64,000 bases of DNA, taken from assembly GCA_031425255.1 (NCBI GenBank), contig JANPIY010000208.1:6955-70954 (forward strand), written 5' to 3'. Positions 42,646 through 54,174 of the stretch are shown piece after piece. Source of the stretch: Planctomycetota bacterium (lineage in GTDB: Bacteria; Planctomycetota; UBA11346). Made by a program: the position numbers and the translations under genes. Position 1 is the stretch's first letter. The number at the start of each line of letters is the position of its first letter. The notes beneath the pieces were generated by a model. That model was not told the DNA's origin and searched no databases. It saw only the letters and a program-made list of their open reading frames with translations.

Positions 42646-45600
42646 ATGCGCTTGCCGCCTCGCCTCATTCTGCCGCTCGTCTTCACCTGCCTCATCAGCG
42701 TGGCGCCGGCTGCCGACAAGCTGTCATACAACCGCGACGTGCGCCCGATCCTGTCCGACACCTGCTTCAAATGCCACGGTCCGGACAAGGGCAATCGCAA
42801 GGGTAAGCTGCGGCTGGATGACCGCGAGGCGGCCCTCGCGAAGGAGGCCTTCGTCCCAGGGAAGCCCGCCGAGAGCGAACTGGTCAAGCGCCTGCACGCC
42901 ACCGATCCCGACGACGTCATGCCACCCAAGGATGCGGTGCGCCAGCTCACCGCCGAGCAGCGCAAGATCCTCGAGCGCTGGATCAGCGAAGGTGCGACCT
43001 ATGAACCGCATTGGGCGTACATCGCGCCCCAACGCCCCGCCTTGCCCACGGTCACCGATCGCACGTGGGCGGCCAATCCCATCGACACCTTCATCCGCGC
43101 GCGCCTGGATGCCGAACAGATCGCGCCTTCCGCGGAGGCCGATCGCGCCACCTTGTTGCGCCGCCTCAGTCTCGATCTCATCGGCCTGCCACCGACGCCG
43201 ACCGAACTCGCCGTCTTCAGCGCCGACCGCGCGCCCGACGCCTTCGCCAAACAGGTCGCCCGCCTGCTCGCCTCGCCGCATTATGGCGAACGCATGGCGG
43301 TGCCGTGGCTCGATGCCGTGCGGTTCGCCGACACCGTCGGCTTCCATGGCGACCAGAATCAGAACAACTTCCCCTACCGCGACTGGGTGATCGACGCCTT
43401 CAACCGCAATCTGCCCTTCGACCGTTTCACCATCGAGCAGCTGGCCGGTGACCTGGTGCCGGGCGCGAACGACGCGACGCGCACCGCCTCGGGTTTCAAC
43501 CGCCTGAACATGATGACGCGCGAGGGCGGCGCCCAGCCCAAGGAATACCTCGCCAAGTACACCGCCGACCGCGTGCGCACCCTCGGCGGTGCCTGGCTGG
43601 GCTCGACCCTGGCCTGCTGCGAATGCCACGACCACAAGTACGACCCGTGGGGCATCAAGGATTTCTACCGCTTCGGCGCATTCTTCGCCGACGTGCGGCA
43701 GTGGGGCGTGTACGCCGATTATGGCTACACCAAGAACCCGGAACTGGCCGGCTACAACAACGACTATCCGTTCCCACCTGAGATCGCGGTGGCGAGCCCC
43801 TACCTGCAGGCGCGTAGCGAGCGCTTGCGCGGGCAACGGGCGCAGGTGATCGCCAAGGCCGCGACCGCCGCCGACGGCAAGGCGCGGACGGCATGGCGGG
43901 CCGAGCTCGCCGCCTTCCTCGCGACCAACCGGGATGGCTGGGCGCCGCTGTCGCCAACGTCGCCGGCGCCAGACGCCAAGGCCAGCTACACCGTCGAAGC
44001 CGATGGCGTGATCACCGTCACCGCCAAGAAGGACGAGAAGGTCGTCGTGCGCCTGACCCCGAGCGTGGGCATCATCGCCAGCATCCGCCTGCAACTGGCA
44101 CCAGGGAAGAACGGGGCGCTGCTGAGCGAGAAGGGCGGCCACGTCGAACTGCGTCTCGCCGCCCGCCCTGCCGGTGACAAGAAAGGCGCCAACCTGGGTA
44201 TCCGCCGTGCGGACGCGACCTCCAAACGCGTGAAATACGCCGGTGGAGCCGAGCTCATCGGCATCCAGCGGGGCTGGAGCCTGAGCGCGGAGCAGGCCCG
44301 CACACCGGCCACCGGCGTGTGGGTGCTCGATCGACCGCTGGTCATCGCTGCCGGCGACGCCGTGGAGCTCACGCTGGAGAAGAACGAACTCGCCCGTTTC
44401 ACGGTGGCGGGGTCTCCCCTGGTGCCCGCCCAGTTGAGCCAGCCGGTATTTCCCGCCGAGCTCCTGACCGCCTTGCGTGGCAGCGGCAACGACCCGCGCA
44501 GCGATGAGGCCTGGCTGCTGAGCGGCGCGGGCGACGCCGCAGCGTATGCGCAGGTGGTGCAGCTCGAGCGCGAGATCGACGAGTGCCGTGACGGCAAGGC
44601 CATGACCACGGTGACCGAGGCTTGGCAGCCCATACCCATCCGCGTCCTGCCGCGGGGCAACTGGCAGGATGAGAATGGTGAGGTGGTGACGCCGGGCGCT
44701 CCACATTTCATGCGCGAGATCCCCGCCGAGAAGGAACGCCGGCTGACCCGCCTCGACCTCGGCGAGTGGCTGACCTCGAGTGACAATCCGCTGACCGCAC
44801 GGGTCTTCGTCAACCGGGTCTGGGCGCAGCTCATGGGCATCGGCATCTCGGCCACGGTCGACGATTTCGGGCTGCAGGGCGAATGGCCCTCGCATCCGGA
44901 ACTGCTCGACTGGTTGGCGGTGGAGTTCCGCGAGAGCGGCTGGGACGTCAAACGATTGGTCACCCTGATCGTCAGCTCGGCCACCTACCGCCAATCGTCG
45001 GTGCTGCGTCCCGAGGTGCTGGCGCGCGATCCGCAGAACCGGCTGCGGGCCAGCCAATCGCCTCGCCGGCTGGACGCCGAGTTCGTGCGTGACAATGCGC
45101 TGACCATCAGTGGCCTGCTGGTCGGCGACATCGGTGGGCCGAGCGCCAAACCCTACCAGCCGCCGAACTACTACACCAACCTCCAGTTCCCGGATCGCGA
45201 CTACGTCGCGAACAGCGACGACCGCCAGTTCCGGCGTGGCGTCTACATGCATTGGCAGCGCACCTTCCTGCATCCGATGCTGGCCAACTTCGATGCCCCC
45301 TCGCGCGACGAGTGCGCGGTGTTCCGCACCCAGGCCAACAGTCCGCAGCAGGCGCTCACGCTGCTCAACGATCCGACCTTCGTCGAGGCGGCACGCACCT
45401 GGGCAGCGCGCCTGATCGCCACTGGCGGCGATGACGGGGCCAAGCTCGAACGCGCCTTCCGCGCCGCCGTCGGCCGAGCGCCCGGCGCCACAGAATCCGC
45501 GCCGCTCCTCGCATTCCTCGCCAAGCAACGGGCGACCTACGCCCAGCCTGGGGACGCAGCCAGCGCCCTGCTGCGCACCGGCGTGTCTCCGCTGCCGCCC

Positions 45601-45684
45601 GAAGCCGACCGCGCCGAGATCGCGGCCTGGACGCAGGTCTGCCGGGTGTTGCTGAACCTGCACGAAACCATCACCCGCCTCTGA
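42646..45684 (+). CDS. PSCyt1/PSCyt2(DUF1549)/PSD1(DUF1553) planctomycete-type cytochrome c protein
   Basis: Signal peptide, CFKCHGPDK heme-binding motif near the N-terminus, 'RRLSLDLIGLPPTP' (DUF1549-like), 'CCECHDHKYDP' (DUF1553-like). Confidence 0.9.
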   Translation: MRLPPRLILPLVFTCLISVAPAADKLSYNRDVRPILSDTCFKCHGPDKGNRKGKLRLDDREAALAKEAFVPGKPAESELVKRLHATDPDDVMPPKDAVRQLTAEQRKILERWISEGATYEPHWAYIAPQRPALPTVTDRTWAANPIDTFIRARLDAEQIAPSAEADRATLLRRLSLDLIGLPPTPTELAVFSADRAPDAFAKQVARLLASPHYGERMAVPWLDAVRFADTVGFHGDQNQNNFPYRDWVIDAFNRNLPFDRFTIEQLAGDLVPGANDATRTASGFNRLNMMTREGGAQPKEYLAKYTADRVRTLGGAWLGSTLACCECHDHKYDPWGIKDFYRFGAFFADVRQWGVYADYGYTKNPELAGYNNDYPFPPEIAVASPYLQARSERLRGQRAQVIAKAATAADGKARTAWRAELAAFLATNRDGWAPLSPTSPAPDAKASYTVEADGVITVTAKKDEKVVVRLTPSVGIIASIRLQLAPGKNGALLSEKGGHVELRLAARPAGDKKGANLGIRRADATSKRVKYAGGAELIGIQRGWSLSAEQARTPATGVWVLDRPLVIAAGDAVELTLEKNELARFTVAGSPLVPAQLSQPVFPAELLTALRGSGNDPRSDEAWLLSGAGDAAAYAQVVQLEREIDECRDGKAMTTVTEAWQPIPIRVLPRGNWQDENGEVVTPGAPHFMREIPAEKERRLTRLDLGEWLTSSDNPLTARVFVNRVWAQLMGIGISATVDDFGLQGEWPSHPELLDWLAVEFRESGWDVKRLVTLIVSSATYRQSSVLRPEVLARDPQNRLRASQSPRRLDAEFVRDNALTISGLLVGDIGGPSAKPYQPPNYYTNLQFPDRDYVANSDDRQFRRGVYMHWQRTFLHPMLANFDAPSRDECAVFRTQANSPQQALTLLNDPTFVEAARTWAARLIATGGDDGAKLERAFRAAVGRAPGATESAPLLAFLAKQRATYAQPGDAASALLRTGVSPLPPEADRAEIAAWTQVCRVLLNLHETITRL

Positions 45685-45689
45685 CAGCC

Positions 45690-45795
45690 GTCCGATGTCC
45701 GATGTCGAACCGCCTTGCTTCACTCCGGAGTTTCCATGCCAGCCAATGACCCTCTTCCCACGATGACATCGGACATCGGACATCGGACATCGGAC
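45690..45795. repeat. inverted tandem-heptamer element, family 1, bracketing the DUF1501 RBS/start
   Basis: Left arm GTCCGATGTCCGATGTC (45690..45706). Right arm (GACATCG)x4 GAC (45765..45795). A 17-bp perfect stem is possible in three registers. The loop contains GGAG (45727..45730) and the ATG at 45736. Confidence 0.9.
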
Positions 45796-47187
45796 GTCCT
45801 TCCCCGCCGCGCCTTCCTCGCCCGCGCCGCCTGTGGCATGGGCGGCATCGCTCTCGCCGGCCTGTTCGCGGGCAATGCGGCTGCCGAGGAACGTTGGCGT
45901 GGCATCATCAAGCCGCAGGCGCCGGTGAAGGCCAAGCGCATCATCCATCTGTGTATGGCCGGCGGGCCGTCGCACCTGGAGACCTTCGATTTCAAGCAGG
46001 CGCTCAAAGACCTGAACGGCAAACCGTTTCCGGACTCCTTCACCAAGGGACAACAGCTCGCGCAGCTCCAGGGCAGCGAGCTCAAGGCGCGCGGCCCGTT
46101 CACCGAATTCAAGAAATGGGGCAAATCCGGCCAGGAGATCTCGACGCTGTTCCCGCATCTCGGCTCGATCGCCGACGACCTCTGCATCATCCGCTCGATG
46201 CACACCGAACAGATCAACCACGACACCGCCCACGCCTTCATGAACACCGGCTCGATCATCAAGGGACGGCCGAGTTGGGGTTCGTGGATGGTCTATGGCC
46301 TCGGCGCGGAGACCGAGGAACTCCCAGGCTTCGTGGTGATGACCTCGCAAGGCCGTGGCGGTGGCGCCCAGCCGGTGTCGGCACGCCAGTGGTCGTCGGG
46401 GTTCCTGCCCAGCAAATTCCAGGGCATCCAGTTCCAGTCCAAGGGCGACGCGGTGCACTACGTCGCCAATCCGGCTGGCGTCGATGCGCCGACCCAGCGC
46501 GGCGTGATCGATGAGGTCACCCGCCTCAACGACCTCCTCGACCAGCGCATCCACGACCCCGAGATCGCCACCCGCAACAGCCAGTACCAGATGGCCTACC
46601 GCATGCAGACCTCGGTGCCCGACCTCACCGACGTGGGCAAGGAGCCGAAGGCGGTGCTGGAGCGTTACGGCATCAAGAAGCCAGGCGATGGCAGCTTCGC
46701 CAGCAATTGCCTGCTGGCCCGGCGCATGGCCGAGCGCGGCGTGCGCTTCATCCAGCTCTACCACCGCGCCTGGGATCACCATGGCGACATCGAGAAGAAC
46801 ATGCCGCTCGCCGCCGAGGAGACCGACCGCTCGAGCGCCGCCTTGATCATGGACCTCAAGGAACGCGGCATGTTGGACGACACGCTGGTGTTGTGGGGTG
46901 GCGAGTTCGGCCGCACCCCGATGGGCCAGGGCTCCGGGCGCGACCATCACATCCTGGGGTTCTCGGTCGCGCTGGCCGGCGGCGGCATCAAGCCCGGCAT
47001 CACCTTCGGCGCCACCGATGAACTCGGCTACAAGGCCGTCGAGCACCCGGTGAGCGTCCACGACCTGCATGCCACCATGCTGCACCTCTGCGGCATCGAC
47101 CACCTCAAGCTGACCTACCGCACGCAAGGCCGCGACTTCCGTCTGACCGACGTGTTCGGCGAGGTGGTGAAGCCGATCCTGGCGTGA
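45736..47187 (+). CDS. DUF1501 domain protein (Tat signal)
   Basis: GGAG 5 nt before the ATG at 45736. 'RRAFLARAACGMGGIALAG' Tat motif, MAGGPSHLETFD, WDHHG, GGEFGRTP. Alternative starts are TTG 45715 and ATG 45763. The heptamer array is translated as TSDIGHRTSD just before the RR motif. Confidence 0.88.
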   Translation: MPANDPLPTMTSDIGHRTSDVLPRRAFLARAACGMGGIALAGLFAGNAAAEERWRGIIKPQAPVKAKRIIHLCMAGGPSHLETFDFKQALKDLNGKPFPDSFTKGQQLAQLQGSELKARGPFTEFKKWGKSGQEISTLFPHLGSIADDLCIIRSMHTEQINHDTAHAFMNTGSIIKGRPSWGSWMVYGLGAETEELPGFVVMTSQGRGGGAQPVSARQWSSGFLPSKFQGIQFQSKGDAVHYVANPAGVDAPTQRGVIDEVTRLNDLLDQRIHDPEIATRNSQYQMAYRMQTSVPDLTDVGKEPKAVLERYGIKKPGDGSFASNCLLARRMAERGVRFIQLYHRAWDHHGDIEKNMPLAAEETDRSSAALIMDLKERGMLDDTLVLWGGEFGRTPMGQGSGRDHHILGFSVALAGGGIKPGITFGATDELGYKAVEHPVSVHDLHATMLHLCGIDHLKLTYRTQGRDFRLTDVFGEVVKPILA

Positions 47188-47260
47188 TGCCGACGGCCCG
47201 GGTCCGAGGTCCGCAGCCCGGAGTCTTGTGGTCCTCCTGGTTGCTCCGACACCATGGGCC

Positions 47261-48424
47261 ATGGTAGCCATCAAGCGCGCTCGGTCTGAACGATCCCGGT
47301 CCCCGGACACCGGACCGCGTACGCTTCGGCGCATCGCCCTGCTCTTCCGCCTGACGCCGGGCTACCCGGAGGGCGTGGTGCGCGGCCTGGCATCGCATGC
47401 GCGCCCGGATCGGCCATGGTTGTTCCGATTCTTCGACGCACCGGATGCAGCGGCGATCCGCGCCTTCGCGCCGGATGCCGGGGTGTGCTGTCTGACGGAA
47501 GCCACCTGGGCGGCGATGGTCCGGCGGCTGCGTCTGCCGCTGGTCAACCTCGGCATCCACGAGCTGGCGCCGCGGCTGCCGCAGGCCGGCAACGACGACC
47601 ATGCCATCGGCGCGGCGGCGGCACGGCACTTCCTCGACCGCGGGTTCACCAGCTTCGCCTATGCCGCAGCGACCTCTACACCGGCGACCGCACGGCGAGG
47701 GGAGGGCTTCTGCGCCACGCTCAGTGCCGCCGGACATGCGGTACAGCGGCGCGTCGGCGGGCCCGACGATGCCTGGCTGCGCGCGCTCCCGCGGCGCACC
47801 GCGATCTTCGCTTTCAACGACCATGCCGCGGCGCAGCTCGCCGACCGCTGCCGCGATCTCGGCCTGCGTCTTCCCGAGGACCTCGCGCTGGTCGGCGCCG
47901 ACAACATCGAGAGCCTGTGCCTGCTGGCGTATCCACCGCTTTCCAGCGTCGCCGTTGCGGCGGAACGCATCGGTCAGGCGGCCGGCGCGATGCTCGATGA
48001 ACTGCTCGCCGGGCGTGCCGTGGCGAGCCGCTTTCTGCCTCCACTCGGCGTGGTGACGCGCCAGTCGAGCGACCTCATCGCCGTAGAGGAACCCCACGTG
48101 GCGGCGGCGCTGCGTTTCATCGCCGCGCATGCGGCTCAGCCGATCCGCGTGTCCGACGTGATGCGCGCGGTGCCGATCGCCCGCCGTACGCTGGAGGAGC
48201 GTTTCCGCGCGCGCCTCGGCCGCAGCCTGCTCGAGGAGATCCAACGCGTGCACCTGGAACGAGCCAAGCACCTGCTGCTGAGCACCGACTGGACGATGCC
48301 GCGGATCGCTGAAGCCAGCGGCTTCAACGACGCCAAACGTTTTGCCACGGTGTTCGCCCAGCGCGAAGGCAGCACGCCGATGCGGTTCCGCAAAGGAGGA
48401 ACGACTTTTCGATGCCCGCCGTGA
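47261..48424 (+). CDS. XylR-like transcriptional regulator (periplasmic-binding-protein-like sensor plus AraC-type HTH)
   Basis: 'RRIALLF', 'AIFAFNDHAAAQLADRCRDLGLRLPEDLALVGADN', and the C-terminal AraC HTH 'IAEASGFNDAKRFATVFAQREGSTPMRFR'. Start ATG 47261 or GTG 47228. Confidence 0.82.
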   Translation: MVAIKRARSERSRSPDTGPRTLRRIALLFRLTPGYPEGVVRGLASHARPDRPWLFRFFDAPDAAAIRAFAPDAGVCCLTEATWAAMVRRLRLPLVNLGIHELAPRLPQAGNDDHAIGAAAARHFLDRGFTSFAYAAATSTPATARRGEGFCATLSAAGHAVQRRVGGPDDAWLRALPRRTAIFAFNDHAAAQLADRCRDLGLRLPEDLALVGADNIESLCLLAYPPLSSVAVAAERIGQAAGAMLDELLAGRAVASRFLPPLGVVTRQSSDLIAVEEPHVAAALRFIAAHAAQPIRVSDVMRAVPIARRTLEERFRARLGRSLLEEIQRVHLERAKHLLLSTDWTMPRIAEASGFNDAKRFATVFAQREGSTPMRFRKGGTTFRCPP

Positions 48425-48428
48425 TGGA

Positions 48429-49454
48429 TCAACCGACGGCGTGGTAGGTCGTCCCGCGCGTCTTGCCGCGCATGGTGGCATGACCGTTCACGACCAGTTG
48501 CCGCAGGAGCGCGCGTACGATGACGGCTTTCCAACCGAGCGCGACCTGGGCCTCGGCACAGGTCAATACCTGCGACCGCTGCAGGAGGCGCAGCAGACGC
48601 GCTGATGGATCCTGCGCCGGTTTCTGTCTCGTGACGCTCACGCTGGCCGCTGCCGGAGCGGACGGTTTGACCGTCTTCGCTGCCACCTTCATGACCAGGC
48701 CGCTGCGCTTCTGACCGCCTTGGCCGGCTGGTGGCGTGCTGACGTCGGCCTCCATTTCCAGTCCGAACAACGCGCCAACCTCCGCCACTGCGAGCGTCCG
48801 GCCGGAACCCGGACCGGTGGTCTTCGCCAGCAACCCCACGCCCGCCTGGGCCAGCAGGTCGGTGGGGTTGGTCTGACGCAAAGTGAACAGCAGCTCCGGC
48901 TGGTGATCGAGTCGCGCGCCGACCCCGTACAGCACGGCTGCGGCATGTTTGCACAGGTACGACCCGTCCGGACAGCTGCATTCCACCCGGATCTGCTTGG
49001 GCGAGGGGAAGAGCCCGTCGTCCTGGTGGCACAGGCGCTCCATCACCGCGGCAGCGAAATGGCCCTGCAGGAGTTCGACCAGCGAATCGATACCGCCGGC
49101 GCATGCCGTGCAGAGCTGCGCCCAGGCGGTCTTTTTCAGCGGGGCTATGGTGATGGTGACCCGGTACATGGACGAGCCGCTGATGTGGGCTGCGATCCGT
49201 CCTGGTGCCACCTGCAGGTCCACGACCGAGCCGTTGCGCGCGTAGGTGCGACCGCGCGGCAGGCGGTTGGCGTAATCGCTATAGGCTTCCAGATGCGTAC
49301 ACCACGCCTTCCCCCACACGGTGGTGGCGATCGCGCGGCCCGTGATCACCACCGGCGATACCGGGTGGCCTTTCTTGGCCAACCGGGCCATCGCCGCCGC
49401 GGCGTTCTTGCGGCGTTCAGCGACCGGTACATAGGGGGCCCATTCATAGAACAT
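48429..49454 (-). CDS. SWIM zinc-finger protein with a C-terminal winged-helix-like region
   Basis: 'VECSCPDGSYLCKHAAAVLY' is a CxC...CxH SWIM motif. The N-terminus 'TTVWGKAWCTHLEAYSDYANRLPRGRTYARNG' is typical of SNF2-associated SWIM proteins. Confidence 0.85.
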   Translation of the reverse strand: MFYEWAPYVPVAERRKNAAAAMARLAKKGHPVSPVVITGRAIATTVWGKAWCTHLEAYSDYANRLPRGRTYARNGSVVDLQVAPGRIAAHISGSSMYRVTITIAPLKKTAWAQLCTACAGGIDSLVELLQGHFAAAVMERLCHQDDGLFPSPKQIRVECSCPDGSYLCKHAAAVLYGVGARLDHQPELLFTLRQTNPTDLLAQAGVGLLAKTTGPGSGRTLAVAEVGALFGLEMEADVSTPPAGQGGQKRSGLVMKVAAKTVKPSAPAAASVSVTRQKPAQDPSARLLRLLQRSQVLTCAEAQVALGWKAVIVRALLRQLVVNGHATMRGKTRGTTYHAVG

Positions 49455-49456
49455 GT

Positions 49457-52165
49457 TCAGGCCTCAGCGCTGGCGGTAGAGAGGTCGAGACTCACGAGTT
49501 TCAGCAACTCGTCATTAGAAAGGGCCGTGAGGTCGGGCTCGCCGCGGCGATGATCGTCGAGCAGGTCATCGGAGAGCGCGCGTTTCGAGGCCATCATGGC
49601 GTCGATCTTCTCTTCGATGGTGCCACGACAGACGAATTTATGCACCAGGACCTGACGCGTCTGGCCGATGCGGAAGGCACGGTCGGTGGCCTGGTTCTCC
49701 ACCGCGGGGTTCCACCACCGATCGAAGTGGATGACGTGCGATGCGGCGGTGAGGTTCAAGCCGGAACCGCCCGCCTTGAGCGACAACACGAAGAAGGGCA
49801 CGGACTGGTCCTCTTGGAAGCGCTGCACCAGGTCCTTTCGTTCCTTCACTGCCGTTTCTCCGGTGAGTACCAGCCCTGGACGGCCGAAGATCGCACCCAG
49901 GAACGCGGCCAGAGGTGCGGTGGTTTCACGGAACTGCGAGAACACCAGCATCTTCTCCTGCTTTGCCGCGATGACCTCGGCGAGTTCGCGCAGACGGGCG
50001 AGCTTACCGCTGTCGGCCTCGGCCCAGGCACCATCACCGAGCCAGTGCGAGGGATGATTGCAGATCTGCTTGAAGCGCATGAGGAACGCCAGGACGACTC
50101 CTTTGCGTTTGATACCGTCCAGGTCATCGCCGGCCAGCGTCTTGGCGAGTTCGCCCACCCCTTGCTGGTACAACGCCGCCTGCCGCCGCGACAACGCGCA
50201 GAATGCCGTGAGTTCGATCTTGTCCGGCAGATCGCTGATCACCGACTTGTCGGTTTTGAGCCGCCGCAGCAGATAAGGCTGCACCAGGGCGCGTAGCGGC
50301 GCATACCCCCGTGGCGTACCGGCGAGGCTCTTGGTGAAGGTGGTGAAGGCCTTGGCGCTGCCGAGCAAACCGGGGTTGATGAAATCGACGATCGACCACA
50401 GGTCGCTCAGGCGGTTTTCGATCGGTGTGCCCGTCAAAGCGATGCGCGACTGGGCGGTCAGTTGCTTCACCGCGCGCGTCTGCCGGGTGCCCGGGTTCTT
50501 GATCGCTTGTGCTTCATCGAGCACCGCCAACCGCCAGCGGGTGGCACCCATCCATGACAGGCGACCGAGCGCGCCGTAGCTGGTGATGACCAGATCGAAA
50601 GCCGCCATGCCCGATGCCGTCAGGGCTTTCAATGCCTCACCCGGCATTGCCGAGGGATGTGCGACCAGCACACGCAGGGACGGTGCGAAGCGGGCGACCT
50701 CCTGCGCCCAATTGGCGAGCAGTGATGCCGGAGCCACCAGCAGGTTGGGGGCGCTCCCCTCCGTCTGCTTCCGCACCAGCAACAGAGCGATGATCTGGAT
50801 GGTCTTCCCCAGACCCATGTCGTCGGCCAGGCACGCACCCAGACGGAGGCGGGAAAGCAGGTGCAACCAGCGGACACCGACTTGTTGATACGGCCGCAAG
50901 GTGGCGTGCAGGTCCCGGCCGGGGTCGACCGCGACCAGCCCCTGGGGTCCGCGCAGGCTCTGCAGGGTCTCCGCCAGCCAGGGGCCGGCGACCACCTGCG
51001 ACCACTCGGCCTCGATGCGCATGCCGGGATCGTCTGGCGCCACGCCGGCACCAGCCAGCAAGCGCATCGCGGCGTGGAAACCCAGACCCTTCTGCCGCGC
51101 CACCGCTTCGACCTGCTTGAAGTGATCGAGCGTCTTTTCCAGACGGGCGCGATCGACCTCCACCCAGCGGCCACGGATCAGCACCAGATCCTGGGAGCCG
51201 GCGAGCAACTGGCCGGCTTCCGTGGCCGTCAGCGGCTCGCCGTCGAGCGCGAGGTCGATGGTGAAATCAAGCAACGCATCCTGTCCGAGCTGCGTTGGGG
51301 CTGTGGCGCCCACGGTGGCCTTGACCTGCGCACGCGCCGGCCGGTTCGCACGCCAGGTCGCCGGCATGCGGACGATCAGGCCGGCCTGTTCCAGCTGCGG
51401 CACATCGTGGAGGAATTGCAGTGCTTCAGCAGCGGACCAGCGCAGCGGATGAAAGATCTCACGGCTGTCGATCAACGCCTTCAGCCAGGCGCAGCGCTCG
51501 CCGGCGCGCTGCAACGGCACCAATAGCGCCAGCAGGCGATCCTTGTTCGCCGTGCCGGCGAATTCCTGCAGGGCCTGCCCCAACGGCTGATGCTGGGTCT
51601 TCGCCTGCGCCGACAGCCGCGTGGTGTAGGTCGCCAGGAAGGCAAACGGCTGGTGCTCATCTTTGCGGTTTTCGGCCAGGTGCACGTGCACCCGACCGAC
51701 CAGATGCCAAGCGGGATTGCGCGACTGCAGGAATGCCGGCAACGGCTGACGCGCACTGGCGAACTCGTCGGTGAACGCCTCACCGAGTCCCGACCACAAC
51801 TCCTGCAGGAGTTCGGCGGTGAGGTACTCGGCGCCCGCCATGGGCGGAGCGGTGGCGACCAGACTCCTCAACTCGTCGAGGAGCGGCGCGGGAGGACAAG
51901 GGACGGTCTGCTGCGAAAGGTCCGGCAGCATGCACAACGCCGAGACGAAACGCGCTGAGAGATCACGCCACCAGGCGATCACCGGCGGCAGCGCCACTCC
52001 GATGTCGCACATGCCCATGGACAACAGGCCATGACCAGTGCCGCTAGTGAAGGCGGCGAGCAGGCGCGTCCGCATGGCCACCGGCAGCGGCGCATCATCG
52101 CCATCGAGGGTCAGGATGAGCTGGCCGCGCGGAGTCAGTGCGAGGGAGTGGCCGCGATCGTTCAA
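49457..52165 (-). CDS. SNF2-family helicase/ATPase with a bacterial SNF2-helicase-associated N-terminal domain
   Basis: 'LADDMGLGKTIQIIALLL' (motif I), 'LAVLDEAQAIKN' (DExx), 'LTGTPIENRL', C-terminal 'LKAGGSGLNLTAASHVIHFDRWWNPAVENQATDRAFRIGQ'. The TTG start overlaps the upstream stop (TTGA). The alternative internal ATG is at 52075. Confidence 0.92.
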   Translation of the reverse strand: MNDRGHSLALTPRGQLILTLDGDDAPLPVAMRTRLLAAFTSGTGHGLLSMGMCDIGVALPPVIAWWRDLSARFVSALCMLPDLSQQTVPCPPAPLLDELRSLVATAPPMAGAEYLTAELLQELWSGLGEAFTDEFASARQPLPAFLQSRNPAWHLVGRVHVHLAENRKDEHQPFAFLATYTTRLSAQAKTQHQPLGQALQEFAGTANKDRLLALLVPLQRAGERCAWLKALIDSREIFHPLRWSAAEALQFLHDVPQLEQAGLIVRMPATWRANRPARAQVKATVGATAPTQLGQDALLDFTIDLALDGEPLTATEAGQLLAGSQDLVLIRGRWVEVDRARLEKTLDHFKQVEAVARQKGLGFHAAMRLLAGAGVAPDDPGMRIEAEWSQVVAGPWLAETLQSLRGPQGLVAVDPGRDLHATLRPYQQVGVRWLHLLSRLRLGACLADDMGLGKTIQIIALLLVRKQTEGSAPNLLVAPASLLANWAQEVARFAPSLRVLVAHPSAMPGEALKALTASGMAAFDLVITSYGALGRLSWMGATRWRLAVLDEAQAIKNPGTRQTRAVKQLTAQSRIALTGTPIENRLSDLWSIVDFINPGLLGSAKAFTTFTKSLAGTPRGYAPLRALVQPYLLRRLKTDKSVISDLPDKIELTAFCALSRRQAALYQQGVGELAKTLAGDDLDGIKRKGVVLAFLMRFKQICNHPSHWLGDGAWAEADSGKLARLRELAEVIAAKQEKMLVFSQFRETTAPLAAFLGAIFGRPGLVLTGETAVKERKDLVQRFQEDQSVPFFVLSLKAGGSGLNLTAASHVIHFDRWWNPAVENQATDRAFRIGQTRQVLVHKFVCRGTIEEKIDAMMASKRALSDDLLDDHRRGEPDLTALSNDELLKLVSLDLSTASAEA

Positions 52166-52599
52166 TGAGTCATCCCTGGCATTTCGTCCTCGGGCGCGGC
52201 GTCGACCACGGTGATTCCCAGATCCGCGGCCCAGGCGAGCAGAACGTGGCGGGTAGCGGCTTCTTCATAGCGATGCCAACGCTCCAACAGCCCACGGTCA
52301 GCCAGCAGATGCTTGTAAGCCCGCCACCCGCCGCGTCGGGAGAAGCACCGGACGACATCCTCATGCAGCGGTGGGCATTCGTCGGCCACGAAGGCCAACA
52401 CCAGTCGCTGTTTCAGATCGAGTTCCCTGGCATCGGGCAGGAGGTGCCAGCCGGTCTCATCGGCGGGGGGAGGGCCGTCACCTTGACCATCGTATAACAC
52501 CCTGACCTGACCGGTCTGGCCATGGATCCACGAGCGCGCATCGTGGCTGGCATCGCGGGCCATGAACGCGCTTTCCAGGTCCGTCCATCTCACAGGCAT
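52162..52599 (-). CDS. hypothetical 145-aa protein translationally coupled to the SNF2 helicase
   Basis: ATG at 52599. Its stop overlaps the helicase start. Possibly UPF0158-like; this is a weak impression only. Confidence 0.6.
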   Translation of the reverse strand: MPVRWTDLESAFMARDASHDARSWIHGQTGQVRVLYDGQGDGPPPADETGWHLLPDARELDLKQRLVLAFVADECPPLHEDVVRCFSRRGGWRAYKHLLADRGLLERWHRYEEAATRHVLLAWAADLGITVVDAAPEDEMPGMTH

Positions 52600-52693
52600 G
52601 GCTTGCGGTCTCCGACGCGGGTGAGCGGGCTTCGCCTGAAATCTGGAAGACGCGGTCCGGGCGATATAGCGACAGCATGCGGCAAGCGTCCAC

Positions 52694-53161
52694 TCATCCG
52701 CTCATCTCCGGCCCCGCCGACGGCCCAGGGAGGCCAGCCACCACGTCGGCGTCCGAACGGTCGGGGTCGATGCAGTCGGCGATGATGTGGTCGGCGAGTT
52801 CGCTCAGGTACTGGCTGAGTACGGCATTCATCTCCTGGAACTCCGGCCACAGATCGCGATCGACCTGCGCCCAGGTGAGGCGCACGCACACCGAGGTCCG
52901 GCGCATGCGCGGATAACGATAGGGTTTGAGGCCCTTGCTGCGGCACAACGCCAGGAACAGCCGCAGCGACCAGGGATTGGTCAGGGAAAAACGGTATTCG
53001 ACCGCCGGTTCGACCGCGGGCCCCGCTGACTCCCCGAGATCGAGGCGGCTCTGCATGCGTTCTATCGCCGCTTGCGCCGCCTGCCGCTCACCGGCGGTGG
53101 TGGCCCCGGCGAAGAGTGCTTTGATCTTTGCCAGACGTTCGCGGATCTGCTGCGCATCCAT
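52694..53161 (-). CDS. hypothetical 155-aa protein with a DUF2786-like N-terminal helix
   Basis: 'QQIRERLAKIKALFAGATTAGERQAAQAAIERMQSRL' resembles the DUF2786 pattern (kI.kLLala....nEaeaA...a..L). The remainder is unassigned. Confidence 0.55.
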   Translation of the reverse strand: MDAQQIRERLAKIKALFAGATTAGERQAAQAAIERMQSRLDLGESAGPAVEPAVEYRFSLTNPWSLRLFLALCRSKGLKPYRYPRMRRTSVCVRLTWAQVDRDLWPEFQEMNAVLSQYLSELADHIIADCIDPDRSDADVVAGLPGPSAGPEMSG

Positions 53162-53484: not shown

Positions 53485-54174
53485 TCACCCCTTTGCGGAG
53501 GCGAATGCCTCCGCCAGCAGCTCGAGCACCACTGCGGCGTGATCGCTGCCCTGCCCGGACGGTTCCAGCTTCATCGCCGTCAGACCGCCCTCGATCTCCA
53601 GGATCGCCAAGCCGTGGACCGCGGCGAGCGCGAGCAGCAGGCGCGGCTGCAACCGCGCCGAGGCGCGGTTGCGGAAGCCCAGGAAGTCCTGCATCGCCTC
53701 CGACACCAGCAGCCAATTTGCGCCGCGCGCGTCCATGAGGTCCTGGTTGCCGGCATCGAGCAGATCCGAGCGCCACATCAGGCGGAACCATTCCCGGTGT
53801 TCGCGGGCGAAGCCCAGGTAGGCCAGCCCGGTCGCCTGGAGGCGCAGGAACGGGTTCTTGCCCGCAGACTCCAATCCGGCGAGCTGGCGTTGATTGAGCG
53901 CTTCGCAACCCGCGGTGGCGATCGCCGTCAGCAGGCCGCGCAGCTCGGGGAAATGATTGATCGGCGCGGCATGCGACACCCCCACCGCGCGCGCCACCGC
54001 GCGGATGGTGAGCCCGGCGAGGCCCTCGCGTTCGAGGACGTGCACCCCCGCCGCCACCAGCGACGCGCGCAGGTTGCCATGATGATAGGCCTTGCGCCGG
54101 CGGACGGGGGCCTTGCTGACGGGCGGCTTGCGGGTGCTCACGCGTGCATCGTGGCGGCCTCTCGCCACGATCAA
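53485..54174 (-). CDS. TetR/AcrR-family transcriptional regulator
   Basis: HTH region 'AYHHGNLRASLVAAGVHVLEREGLAGLTIRAVARAVGVSHAAPINHF'. Start uncertain: TTG 54174 or in-frame GTGs a few codons downstream. Confidence 0.88.
   Translation of the reverse strand: MIVARGRHDARVSTRKPPVSKAPVRRRKAYHHGNLRASLVAAGVHVLEREGLAGLTIRAVARAVGVSHAAPINHFPELRGLLTAIATAGCEALNQRQLAGLESAGKNPFLRLQATGLAYLGFAREHREWFRLMWRSDLLDAGNQDLMDARGANWLLVSEAMQDFLGFRNRASARLQPRLLLALAAVHGLAILEIEGGLTAMKLEPSGQGSDHAAVVLELLAEAFASAKG

Follow-up and report, generated by a model that had tools for sequence, protein, structure and literature searches.

A probably mobile SNF2-SWIM gene pair with two small co-oriented neighbours in a planctomycete metagenome genome

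The window analysed here, a stretch of 64 kb taken at its full length, belongs to a fragmented planctomycete metagenome genome (designated G000; 958 contigs, 83% complete) and carries on its minus strand a string of four genes: a gene for a protein of 155 amino acids (aa), hereafter P4, a 145-aa gene, hereafter P3, a SNF2-family ATPase and a SWIM zinc-finger partner (Table 1). This arrangement had been described in a first-pass annotation, and each of its particulars was reproduced from the open reading frames (ORFs) and the sequence: the P3 stop and the SNF2 start have four nucleotides (nt), TTGA, in common, the SNF2 and SWIM genes meet at TGA-AC-ATG with a gap of 2 nt, and 94 nt separate P4 from P3. 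All four frames show a coding-type distribution of guanine-cytosine (GC) content, 0.72-0.81 at third codon positions (GC3) versus about 0.5 at second positions (GC2) and, because they also have conserved homologues, none of them is a chance ORF. We consider it probable that the known two-gene SNF2-SWIM unit is present here as a horizontally mobile copy, accompanied by two optional small genes, and that it operates by the mechanism proposed below.

Table 1. Features of the SNF2-SWIM locus and its immediate flanks, in positions of the window
Feature	Position	Strand	Basis
SWIM zinc-finger partner, 341 aa	48429..49454	-	six-frame ORFs and translation, Pfam SWIM
SNF2-family ATPase, 902 aa, TTG start	49457..52165	-	Pfam DUF3670, SNF2-rel_dom and Helicase_C
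P3, divergent UPF0158-family protein, 145 aa	52162..52599	-	profile search, hhalign
P4, 155 aa, DUF2786-type N-terminal helical hairpin and beta-alpha-beta-alpha C-terminal domain	52694..53161	-	AlphaFold2, Foldseek
Non-coding stretch, 323 nt, 5' of P4	53162..53484	.	no ORF with coding bias
AraC-type regulator with periplasmic-binding fold, flank on the SWIM side	47228..48424	+	Pfam
Gene without Pfam match, flank on the P4 side	53485..54174	-	Pfam scan

The SNF2 protein is matched in Pfam by DUF3670 (E 2e-29), SNF2-rel_dom (4e-61) and Helicase_C (3e-19), and helicase motifs I, II and VI (DDMGLGKT, DEAQ and QATDRAFRIGQ) are intact in its translation. The best solved relative of its core, residues 418-894, is Sulfolobus SSO1653, or SsoRad54 (PDB 1z63, E 4.8e-124). 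By this ATPase core and by the adjacency of a SWIM gene, the protein belongs with the SWIM-associated SNF2 pairs of the SsoRad54 type, a group that was named by Iyer et al. (2017) and is widely present in mobile systems (PMC5512222). The best NCBIfam match is NF058637 (SCO1167/SCO6262; 549.6 bits over residues 200-893), and because this score lies under the equivalog cut-off of 1200 bits, we place the protein in a subfamily related to NF058637 and not in that family. The description of SNF2 and SWIM genes as a widespread bacterial pair with no assigned function was borne out, and the literature on DUF3670, DUF2786, UPF0158, helZ/ywqA and the fourth ORF of IS66 yielded no functional study; a Variovorax 'snf2' paper was set aside, as it deals with unrelated small proteins. 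A third SNF2 protein of G000, 896 aa long and encoded on contig C289, has neither SWIM nor DUF3670.

The 341-aa partner bears the SWIM motif CSCPDGSYLCKH at residues 158-176 (Pfam E 4.5e-6, above the gathering score). Its conserved N-terminal domain extends over residues ~1-210, with CxC..CxH at 159-171, and is followed by a low-complexity linker; the N-terminal ~210 residues are matched by the phage family profile phrog_29996 (1189 positions, 7.8e-19), and the protein also matches the PADLOC defence candidate PDC-S62 (7.8e-7), while a sequence search of the PDB found no relative. A SWIM paper by Makarova, Aravind and Koonin reportedly dates from 2002. The first-pass annotation saw a winged-helix-like end in this protein, and the C-terminal ~60 residues do lend some weak support to that view through matches to DUF3489 (E 0.02) and a Ren-like phrog (E 0.05); judged from the sequence, a winged helix at about 280-341 is possible.

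The two genes are closely bound to one another. SWIM orthologues, 52-71% identical, each lie directly 3' of SNF2, and the 18 related loci that yielded both genes have, without exception, the SWIM gene directly after SNF2 in the same orientation. In a G000 paralogue of at least 1073 aa (L082 1936-5154, contig C130) a SWIM finger, at residues 86-103, is fused N-terminal to the SNF2 core. Since SNF2 and SWIM are always adjacent, and are fused in this paralogue, we take them to work as one machine. An apparent SNF2-SWIM fusion in another genome, G024, was rejected, the long ORF being a shadow frame in DNA that is very rich in GC, with its two matches in different frames; G024 had distorted its branch of the SNF2 tree and was disregarded.

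The distribution of the pair is that of an accessory unit. In the order-level sample, which comprised 48 genomes from one family (most of the genomes used in this study being incomplete metagenome bins), a SWIM orthologue occurs in 22, and in two of the seven best genomes. A single genome, G007, shares flanking genes with the window, on the SWIM side only, and no relative was found to share the P4/exporter side. Neighbours at the related loci include an IS66 tnpB-like ORF, fragments of rve-type transposases, PIN and ParE/Phd toxin-antitoxin genes, AAA_14/DUF4143 ATPases and an ORF that, read by eye, has an HsdR-like N-terminus, along with ordinary planctomycete genes. Copies with 59-62% identity in SNF2 and 52-59% in SWIM are carried by alpha- and betaproteobacterial plasmids (Bradyrhizobium, Rhodovastum, Cupriavidus and Burkholderia), and half of the 110 plasmid records are typed conjugative (the PLSDB gene tables used here are incomplete). 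Presence in 22 of 48 genomes, differing flanks and plasmid copies together mark the pair as an accessory unit that moves from one phylum to another. A universally fixed core-genome position, which had been named beforehand as the sign of a housekeeping role, is thus not what these genomes display.

This patchy, plasmid-borne and non-core distribution also speaks against the idea that SNF2-SWIM is a RapA/HepA-like factor for RNA-polymerase recycling or anti-backtracking, as proposed for B. subtilis YwqA, to which the small proteins would be irrelevant. YwqA, a poorly characterised Swi2/Snf2 protein, is listed among the translocases reported to interact with RNA polymerase (PMC7385302), but the RapA/HepA model gives the window's SNF2 protein 41.6 bits, under its cut-off of 576, and covers the C-terminal helicase lobe only (residues 713-852). 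We regard this explanation as very unlikely.

The 145-aa protein P3 has no match in Pfam, NCBIfam, PADLOC or PHROGs. Tested directly against the Pfam hidden Markov model (HMM) for UPF0158, PF03682, it gives no match at E up to 10, and its closest homologues reach 15.6-17.6 bits (cut-off 21.1 bits). A search of 5.8 billion proteins returned no more than four close homologues (52-65% identical), and the P3 clade has only five known cluster representatives; a search of 24 genomes from the same family did not find P3. The profile built from the five P3 sequences nevertheless drew in 1029 proteins of about 140 aa, and 25 of 60 relatives sampled from these match PF03682. Alignment of P3 with 26 PF03682-bearing proteins by hhalign gave 99.9% and E 3e-33 over 137 columns, and tblastn of P3 arrived at genes named 'UPF0158 family protein' by the Prokaryotic Genome Annotation Pipeline (PGAP; E 1e-16). 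As profile search, hhalign and tblastn all lead to PF03682 members, P3 is a divergent UPF0158 protein, and the motif RRGAY/W..FK..L...W..FE is common to both. The AlphaFold2 model of P3 has a predicted local distance difference test (pLDDT) score of 87.8, and Foldseek found nothing in the PDB below E 0.1.

Ordinary UPF0158 genes are mostly solitary and occur in varied settings. One close homologue of P3, P0006, lies on a 57-kb metagenome contig, L038, in the order XRE-type helix-turn-helix (HTH) gene, P3, SNF2, SWIM, P4, with the same 4-nt overlap between P3 and SNF2. Members of the wider family stand beside the pair on proteobacterial plasmids as well. On pHG1 of Cupriavidus necator H16, SNF2 and a SWIM-like protein gene are followed by UPF0158 236 nt on; on a plasmid of Burkholderia sp. 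MS455, the string is integrase, SNF2, SWIM, UPF0158 (after a 10-nt gap) and a SEC-C-motif protein (after 9 nt); and in Cupriavidus sp. P-10 the tblastn matches for SWIM and UPF0158 are 569 nt apart. SWIM and UPF0158 are adjacent in three of the five plasmid lineages that hold both, where ~0.5-4% would be expected by chance. The integrase of the MS455 string (L093 30-6817, NZ_CP041780.1) is of phage type, and a group II intron and an IS256 element come next.

Two further features of the UPF0158 family came to light. On two unrelated metagenome contigs a small XRE-type HTH gene adjoins a UPF0158-type gene (L038 7613-8441 and L069 5001-5782), the UPF0158-type gene standing ahead of the HTH gene in one and 6 nt behind it in the other, amid toxin-antitoxin, AbiEii and AAA_14/DUF4143 genes. 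Single predicted proteins also fuse UPF0158 to PRiA4_ORF3 (MM3350-like) or to a GNAT acetyltransferase (P0206, P0244, P0203, P0186, P0249), and further fusions involve a nitroreductase and AHSA1; the fusion set as a whole gave no coherent functional hint.

P4, by comparison of its 477 homologues, forms a tight family (the best 120 of the 477 are 63-99% identical) that, among genomes, turned up in this planctomycete family alone; none was found in 16 genomes from other families of the phylum. Its AlphaFold2 model (pLDDT 81.6, core about 95) shows an N-terminal helical hairpin and a well-defined beta-alpha-beta-alpha domain. The first-pass annotation called the protein DUF2786-like, which holds at the level of the fold but not at that of the Pfam model. 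The Pfam DUF2786 HMM, PF10979, does not match P4 (cut-off 23.9 bits), and the homologue P0043 reaches 12.3 bits at E 0.17; searches of NCBIfam and PADLOC returned nothing, and PHROGs a single insignificant match (E 0.28). Foldseek, by contrast, aligns the model with phage DUF2786 and DUF7168 proteins in BFVD (E 4e-6 to 1e-3; for the DUF2786 proteins 4e-6 to 7e-6), among them the DUF2786 protein of Bacillus phage SP-15 (E 6.8e-6, probability 1.00); the template-modelling (TM) scores against DUF2786 are only 0.4-0.5 because of a flexible linker. Against the PDB nothing fell below E 0.1, and no sequence match was found in 50,697 phage records.

The view of DUF2786 as a family frequent on plasmids and phages agrees with these results, the fold matches being phage proteins and the sequence relatives lying on plasmids. 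P4 homologues of 46-50% identity were found on 25 plasmids, 12 of them from Bradyrhizobium and 15 typed conjugative. Each homologue examined on a Bradyrhizobium plasmid belongs to a complete element of the IS66 family as its fourth ORF, convergent with tnpC at a 0-nt gap. The 3.1-kb repeat in which it lies has inverted repeats of the GTGAGCGTCAC type and an 8-bp duplication, CGTCCACT, at its borders. An example is the element at L087 5849-8981 (NZ_CP088024.1, B. quebecense plasmid pBq66S1MBb, about 124300-127430), whose passenger WP_166202962.1 (145 aa) is 50% identical to P4 and whose ends read GTGAGCGTCAC.../...GTGACGCTCAC with CGTCCACT as the 8-bp target duplication; boundaries identical to these are found on many plasmids of Bradyrhizobium. 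SNF2-SWIM, too, is present on this plasmid type, at a place that does not adjoin the IS66 homologue of P4. Unlike this passenger, P4 of the window stands in an operon-like string with SNF2-SWIM, and no tnpA, tnpB or tnpC was found among the characterised genes within ~6 kb on either side, no search with IS66 models having been made.

We weighed whether the two small genes belong with the pair by examining the places where each is found. P4 adjoins SNF2-SWIM in seven of the 21 loci with enough flanking sequence, on the same strand in all seven. It lies upstream of SNF2 in G000, in G013 (by about 38 nt), in G020 and in G063 (by about 400 nt), and downstream of SWIM in G004, where it overlaps the SWIM stop by ATGA, on L038 (by 68 nt) and on L049, where two small ORFs intervene; L038 is a biased sample, having been reached through P3. 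Adjacency of P4 and SWIM was observed in five of the 11 genomes that have both, against roughly 0.2% expected by chance per genome. On the SNF2 tree, loci with and without P4 are interspersed among close relatives, a pattern that speaks for gain, loss or relocation having happened repeatedly. One solitary copy (L047 1-8185, ENA scaffold_3250_c1) is found in a co-oriented string of DUF4132, DUF4132/HEAT, a 406-aa protein, NTP_transf_8, P4 and a 239-aa protein.

Some of these data would suit an explanation in which the small genes are unrelated hitch-hikers, generic cargo of mobile or variable DNA whose overlaps reflect compaction after insertion. On this view UPF0158 genes fill many accessory cassettes, the DUF2786-like gene travels as an IS66 passenger, and both come to lie beside SNF2-SWIM only because the pair occupies the same kind of region. 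The GC3 of P3, at 0.72, is lower than the 0.81-0.90 of its neighbours; P3 did not turn up in the same-family genomes searched, and its close homologue P0007 adjoins an oxidoreductase, not SNF2. The slot between P4 and SNF2 is filled in G063 by a different, unrelated 94-aa ORF without Pfam match (L050 1890-2290, contig C20) and by nothing in G013. The plasmid relatives of P4 reside inside a complete IS66 element with its inverted repeats and 8-bp duplication, solitary P4 copies have no common neighbour, and P4 occurs irregularly across the SNF2 tree. Hitch-hiking does not, however, readily account for the co-orientation of all seven adjacent P4 copies with the pair at operon-type spacing, for a UPF0158 adjacency seen repeatedly in two phyla, with distances of -4, 10 and 236 nt, or for the three plasmid lineages in five in which SWIM and UPF0158 are neighbours far above chance. 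Orientation, spacing and recurrence (for UPF0158 in two phyla) argue that the small genes are not random neighbours, and we hold the hitch-hiker explanation to be unlikely.

The larger module suggested by the first-pass annotation consequently survives in part. The linkage is non-random, with P4 co-oriented beside the pair in a third of the informative loci and UPF0158 adjoining SNF2-SWIM in two lineages of planctomycetes as well as on plasmids of Cupriavidus and Burkholderia; as a four-gene unit, the module fails, with P3 not found in the 24 family genomes searched, P4 alone in 14 of 21 loci and P4 varying in position. All four genes occur together on only one other contig, L038, in a different order (P4 last, not first) and, since most SNF2-SWIM pairs are also without the small genes, the four genes do not constitute an obligate system.

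A more ambitious proposal would have all four genes form one integrated system, for instance for anti-phage or anti-plasmid defence, with the small proteins as sensor and/or effector and SNF2-SWIM as the engine. On L038 the four genes have on their flanks an integrase as well as PIN and ParE/Phd toxin-antitoxin genes, the pHG1 trio lies near ParDE and a restriction endonuclease, the SNF2 core resembles the ZorD, DpdE and DrmD models, and the SWIM protein matches PDC-S62. The resemblance is nevertheless confined to the generic ATPase core, at scores far under the curated cut-offs: ZorD gives 274.7 bits (cut-off 1500; structure 8qy7, E 1e-67) and the DrmD models give 60.7 and 92.6 bits (cut-offs 610 and 950). 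The absence of a visible nuclease or methylase, noted at first reading, holds for the four genes in Pfam, NCBIfam and PADLOC, and these searches found no nuclease, NADase, pore or other effector domain; nor did PADLOC give a system-level match at the locus. With only two four-gene loci, their gene order differing, with most pairs lacking one or both small genes, and with no Zorya, DISARM, Dpd or BREX partners among the Pfam-characterised neighbours, an integrated system is in our judgement improbable. A defence role of the module is possible but unsupported, the contexts being mixed and neither an effector nor a system-level match having been found.

The comparison with established defence systems leads to the same point from another side. 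ZorD of Zorya, DrmD of DISARM and DpdE have a generic SNF2 core like that of the window's protein, which shows no Mrr, PLD or other nuclease domain among its Pfam matches. The Pfam-characterised neighbours (AraC-type regulator, FtsX, ABC, HlyD and OEP) include no Zorya partner, the Zor models not having been run there, and likewise no DrmA, DrmB, DrmC or methylase, the Drm models not having been run there either. The SsoRad54-type SNF2-SWIM group is closer, being alike in the ATPase core, in a SWIM gene directly downstream and in an accessory, plasmid-borne distribution; the window differs in its bacterial DUF3670 N-terminal region, in a SWIM protein with a possible winged-helix tail and in its two extra small genes, which are not described for that group in the literature searchable here. 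Closest in composition are the operons of pHG1 (helicase WP_011154091.1, WP_041688683.1 and WP_011154089.1) and MS455, whose SNF2 and SWIM proteins are 59-61% and 52-55% identical to those of the window. In both, the UPF0158 gene comes after SWIM and its product is 30% identical to P3, whereas in the window P3 comes before SNF2; the pHG1 SWIM protein has a Lys/Ala-rich tail where the window's has its winged-helix-like end, MS455 has the additional SEC-C-motif protein, and both operons are without a DUF2786-like gene.

We thus return to a mobile SNF2-SWIM unit with optional small partners as the probable reading, and to the mechanism that would go with it, whose molecular steps we infer from the established properties of SNF2 ATPases, the relationships among the genes being observed directly. 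The SNF2 protein would be a double-stranded-DNA translocase of the SsoRad54/SSO1653 type with a DUF3670 N-terminal region, its zinc-finger partner being supplied by the next gene. The SWIM subunit may bind this motor and place or gate it by way of its C-terminal DNA-binding region, and ATP hydrolysis would then drive translocation of SNF2 on duplex DNA, remodelling or stripping protein-DNA complexes. The UPF0158 protein could act as an adaptor or as a regulatory subunit, its effect most likely being exerted by way of SWIM, and the DUF2786-fold protein as a second, looser and lineage-specific modulator. Such a module would serve transactions on accessory or mobile DNA and would have no core housekeeping role, and its core would recruit optional small partners from a stock of mobile-DNA genes.

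Several observations weigh against this reading. P4 is away from SNF2-SWIM, with no common neighbour, in 14 of 21 loci, and across the 48 genomes of the order, 19 with P4, 22 with SWIM and 11 with the two together, a Fisher test finds no significant association (p 0.14). Because the relatives are kin, independent events are fewer than the adjacency counts suggest. The majority of SNF2-SWIM pairs have neither of the small genes, and UPF0158 and DUF2786-like genes are for the most part found away from SNF2-SWIM. The winged helix assigned to the SWIM protein is weak and, because neither small protein matches a solved fold, their adaptor or regulator role is something we purely infer.

The SNF2-SWIM core itself has long been known, and the recurrent link between UPF0158 and SWIM is the one modestly new lead. 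We raise, tentatively and as a possibility that we rather doubt, a stronger version of it, in which UPF0158 would be a dedicated partner of SWIM proteins and the SWIM-UPF0158 dyad would serve different engines, here SNF2. The result would be an undescribed cross-phylum SNF2-SWIM-UPF0158 machine to which a DUF2786-fold protein, from IS66, phage or plasmid stock, might be added as a lineage-specific fourth modulator. SNF2-SWIM is among the commonest bacterial gene pairs without an assigned role, and UPF0158 and DUF2786 are large families without a function; if the linkage is a physical partnership, three orphan families gain one shared, testable context. In that case C. necator H16, with its SNF2-SWIM-UPF0158 string on the dispensable megaplasmid pHG1, would be a tractable organism for its study. 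If the linkage means no more than that these genes reside together in mobile DNA, there is nothing out of the ordinary about the locus.

At the ends of the locus, the non-coding stretch 5' of P4 is presumed to be a candidate promoter region for the four-gene string. No sigma-70-type consensus or terminator and no Rfam match was found in or around the locus, the 94-nt gap between P4 and P3 folds no better than shuffled sequences, and no flanking repeats indicating an integrated element were found around the locus, an imperfect inverted pair of 17 nt at 48380 and 53490 being at chance level. Genes of an FtsX/ABC/HlyD/OEP exporter, identified by Pfam, lie beyond the unmatched gene on the P4 side. 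On the SWIM side, a minus-strand ORF of 1536 aa at 42724-47334 was rejected as a shadow frame; the genes on the plus strand, at 42646-45684 and 45715-47187, are the ones favoured by codon-position GC and by conservation in G007.

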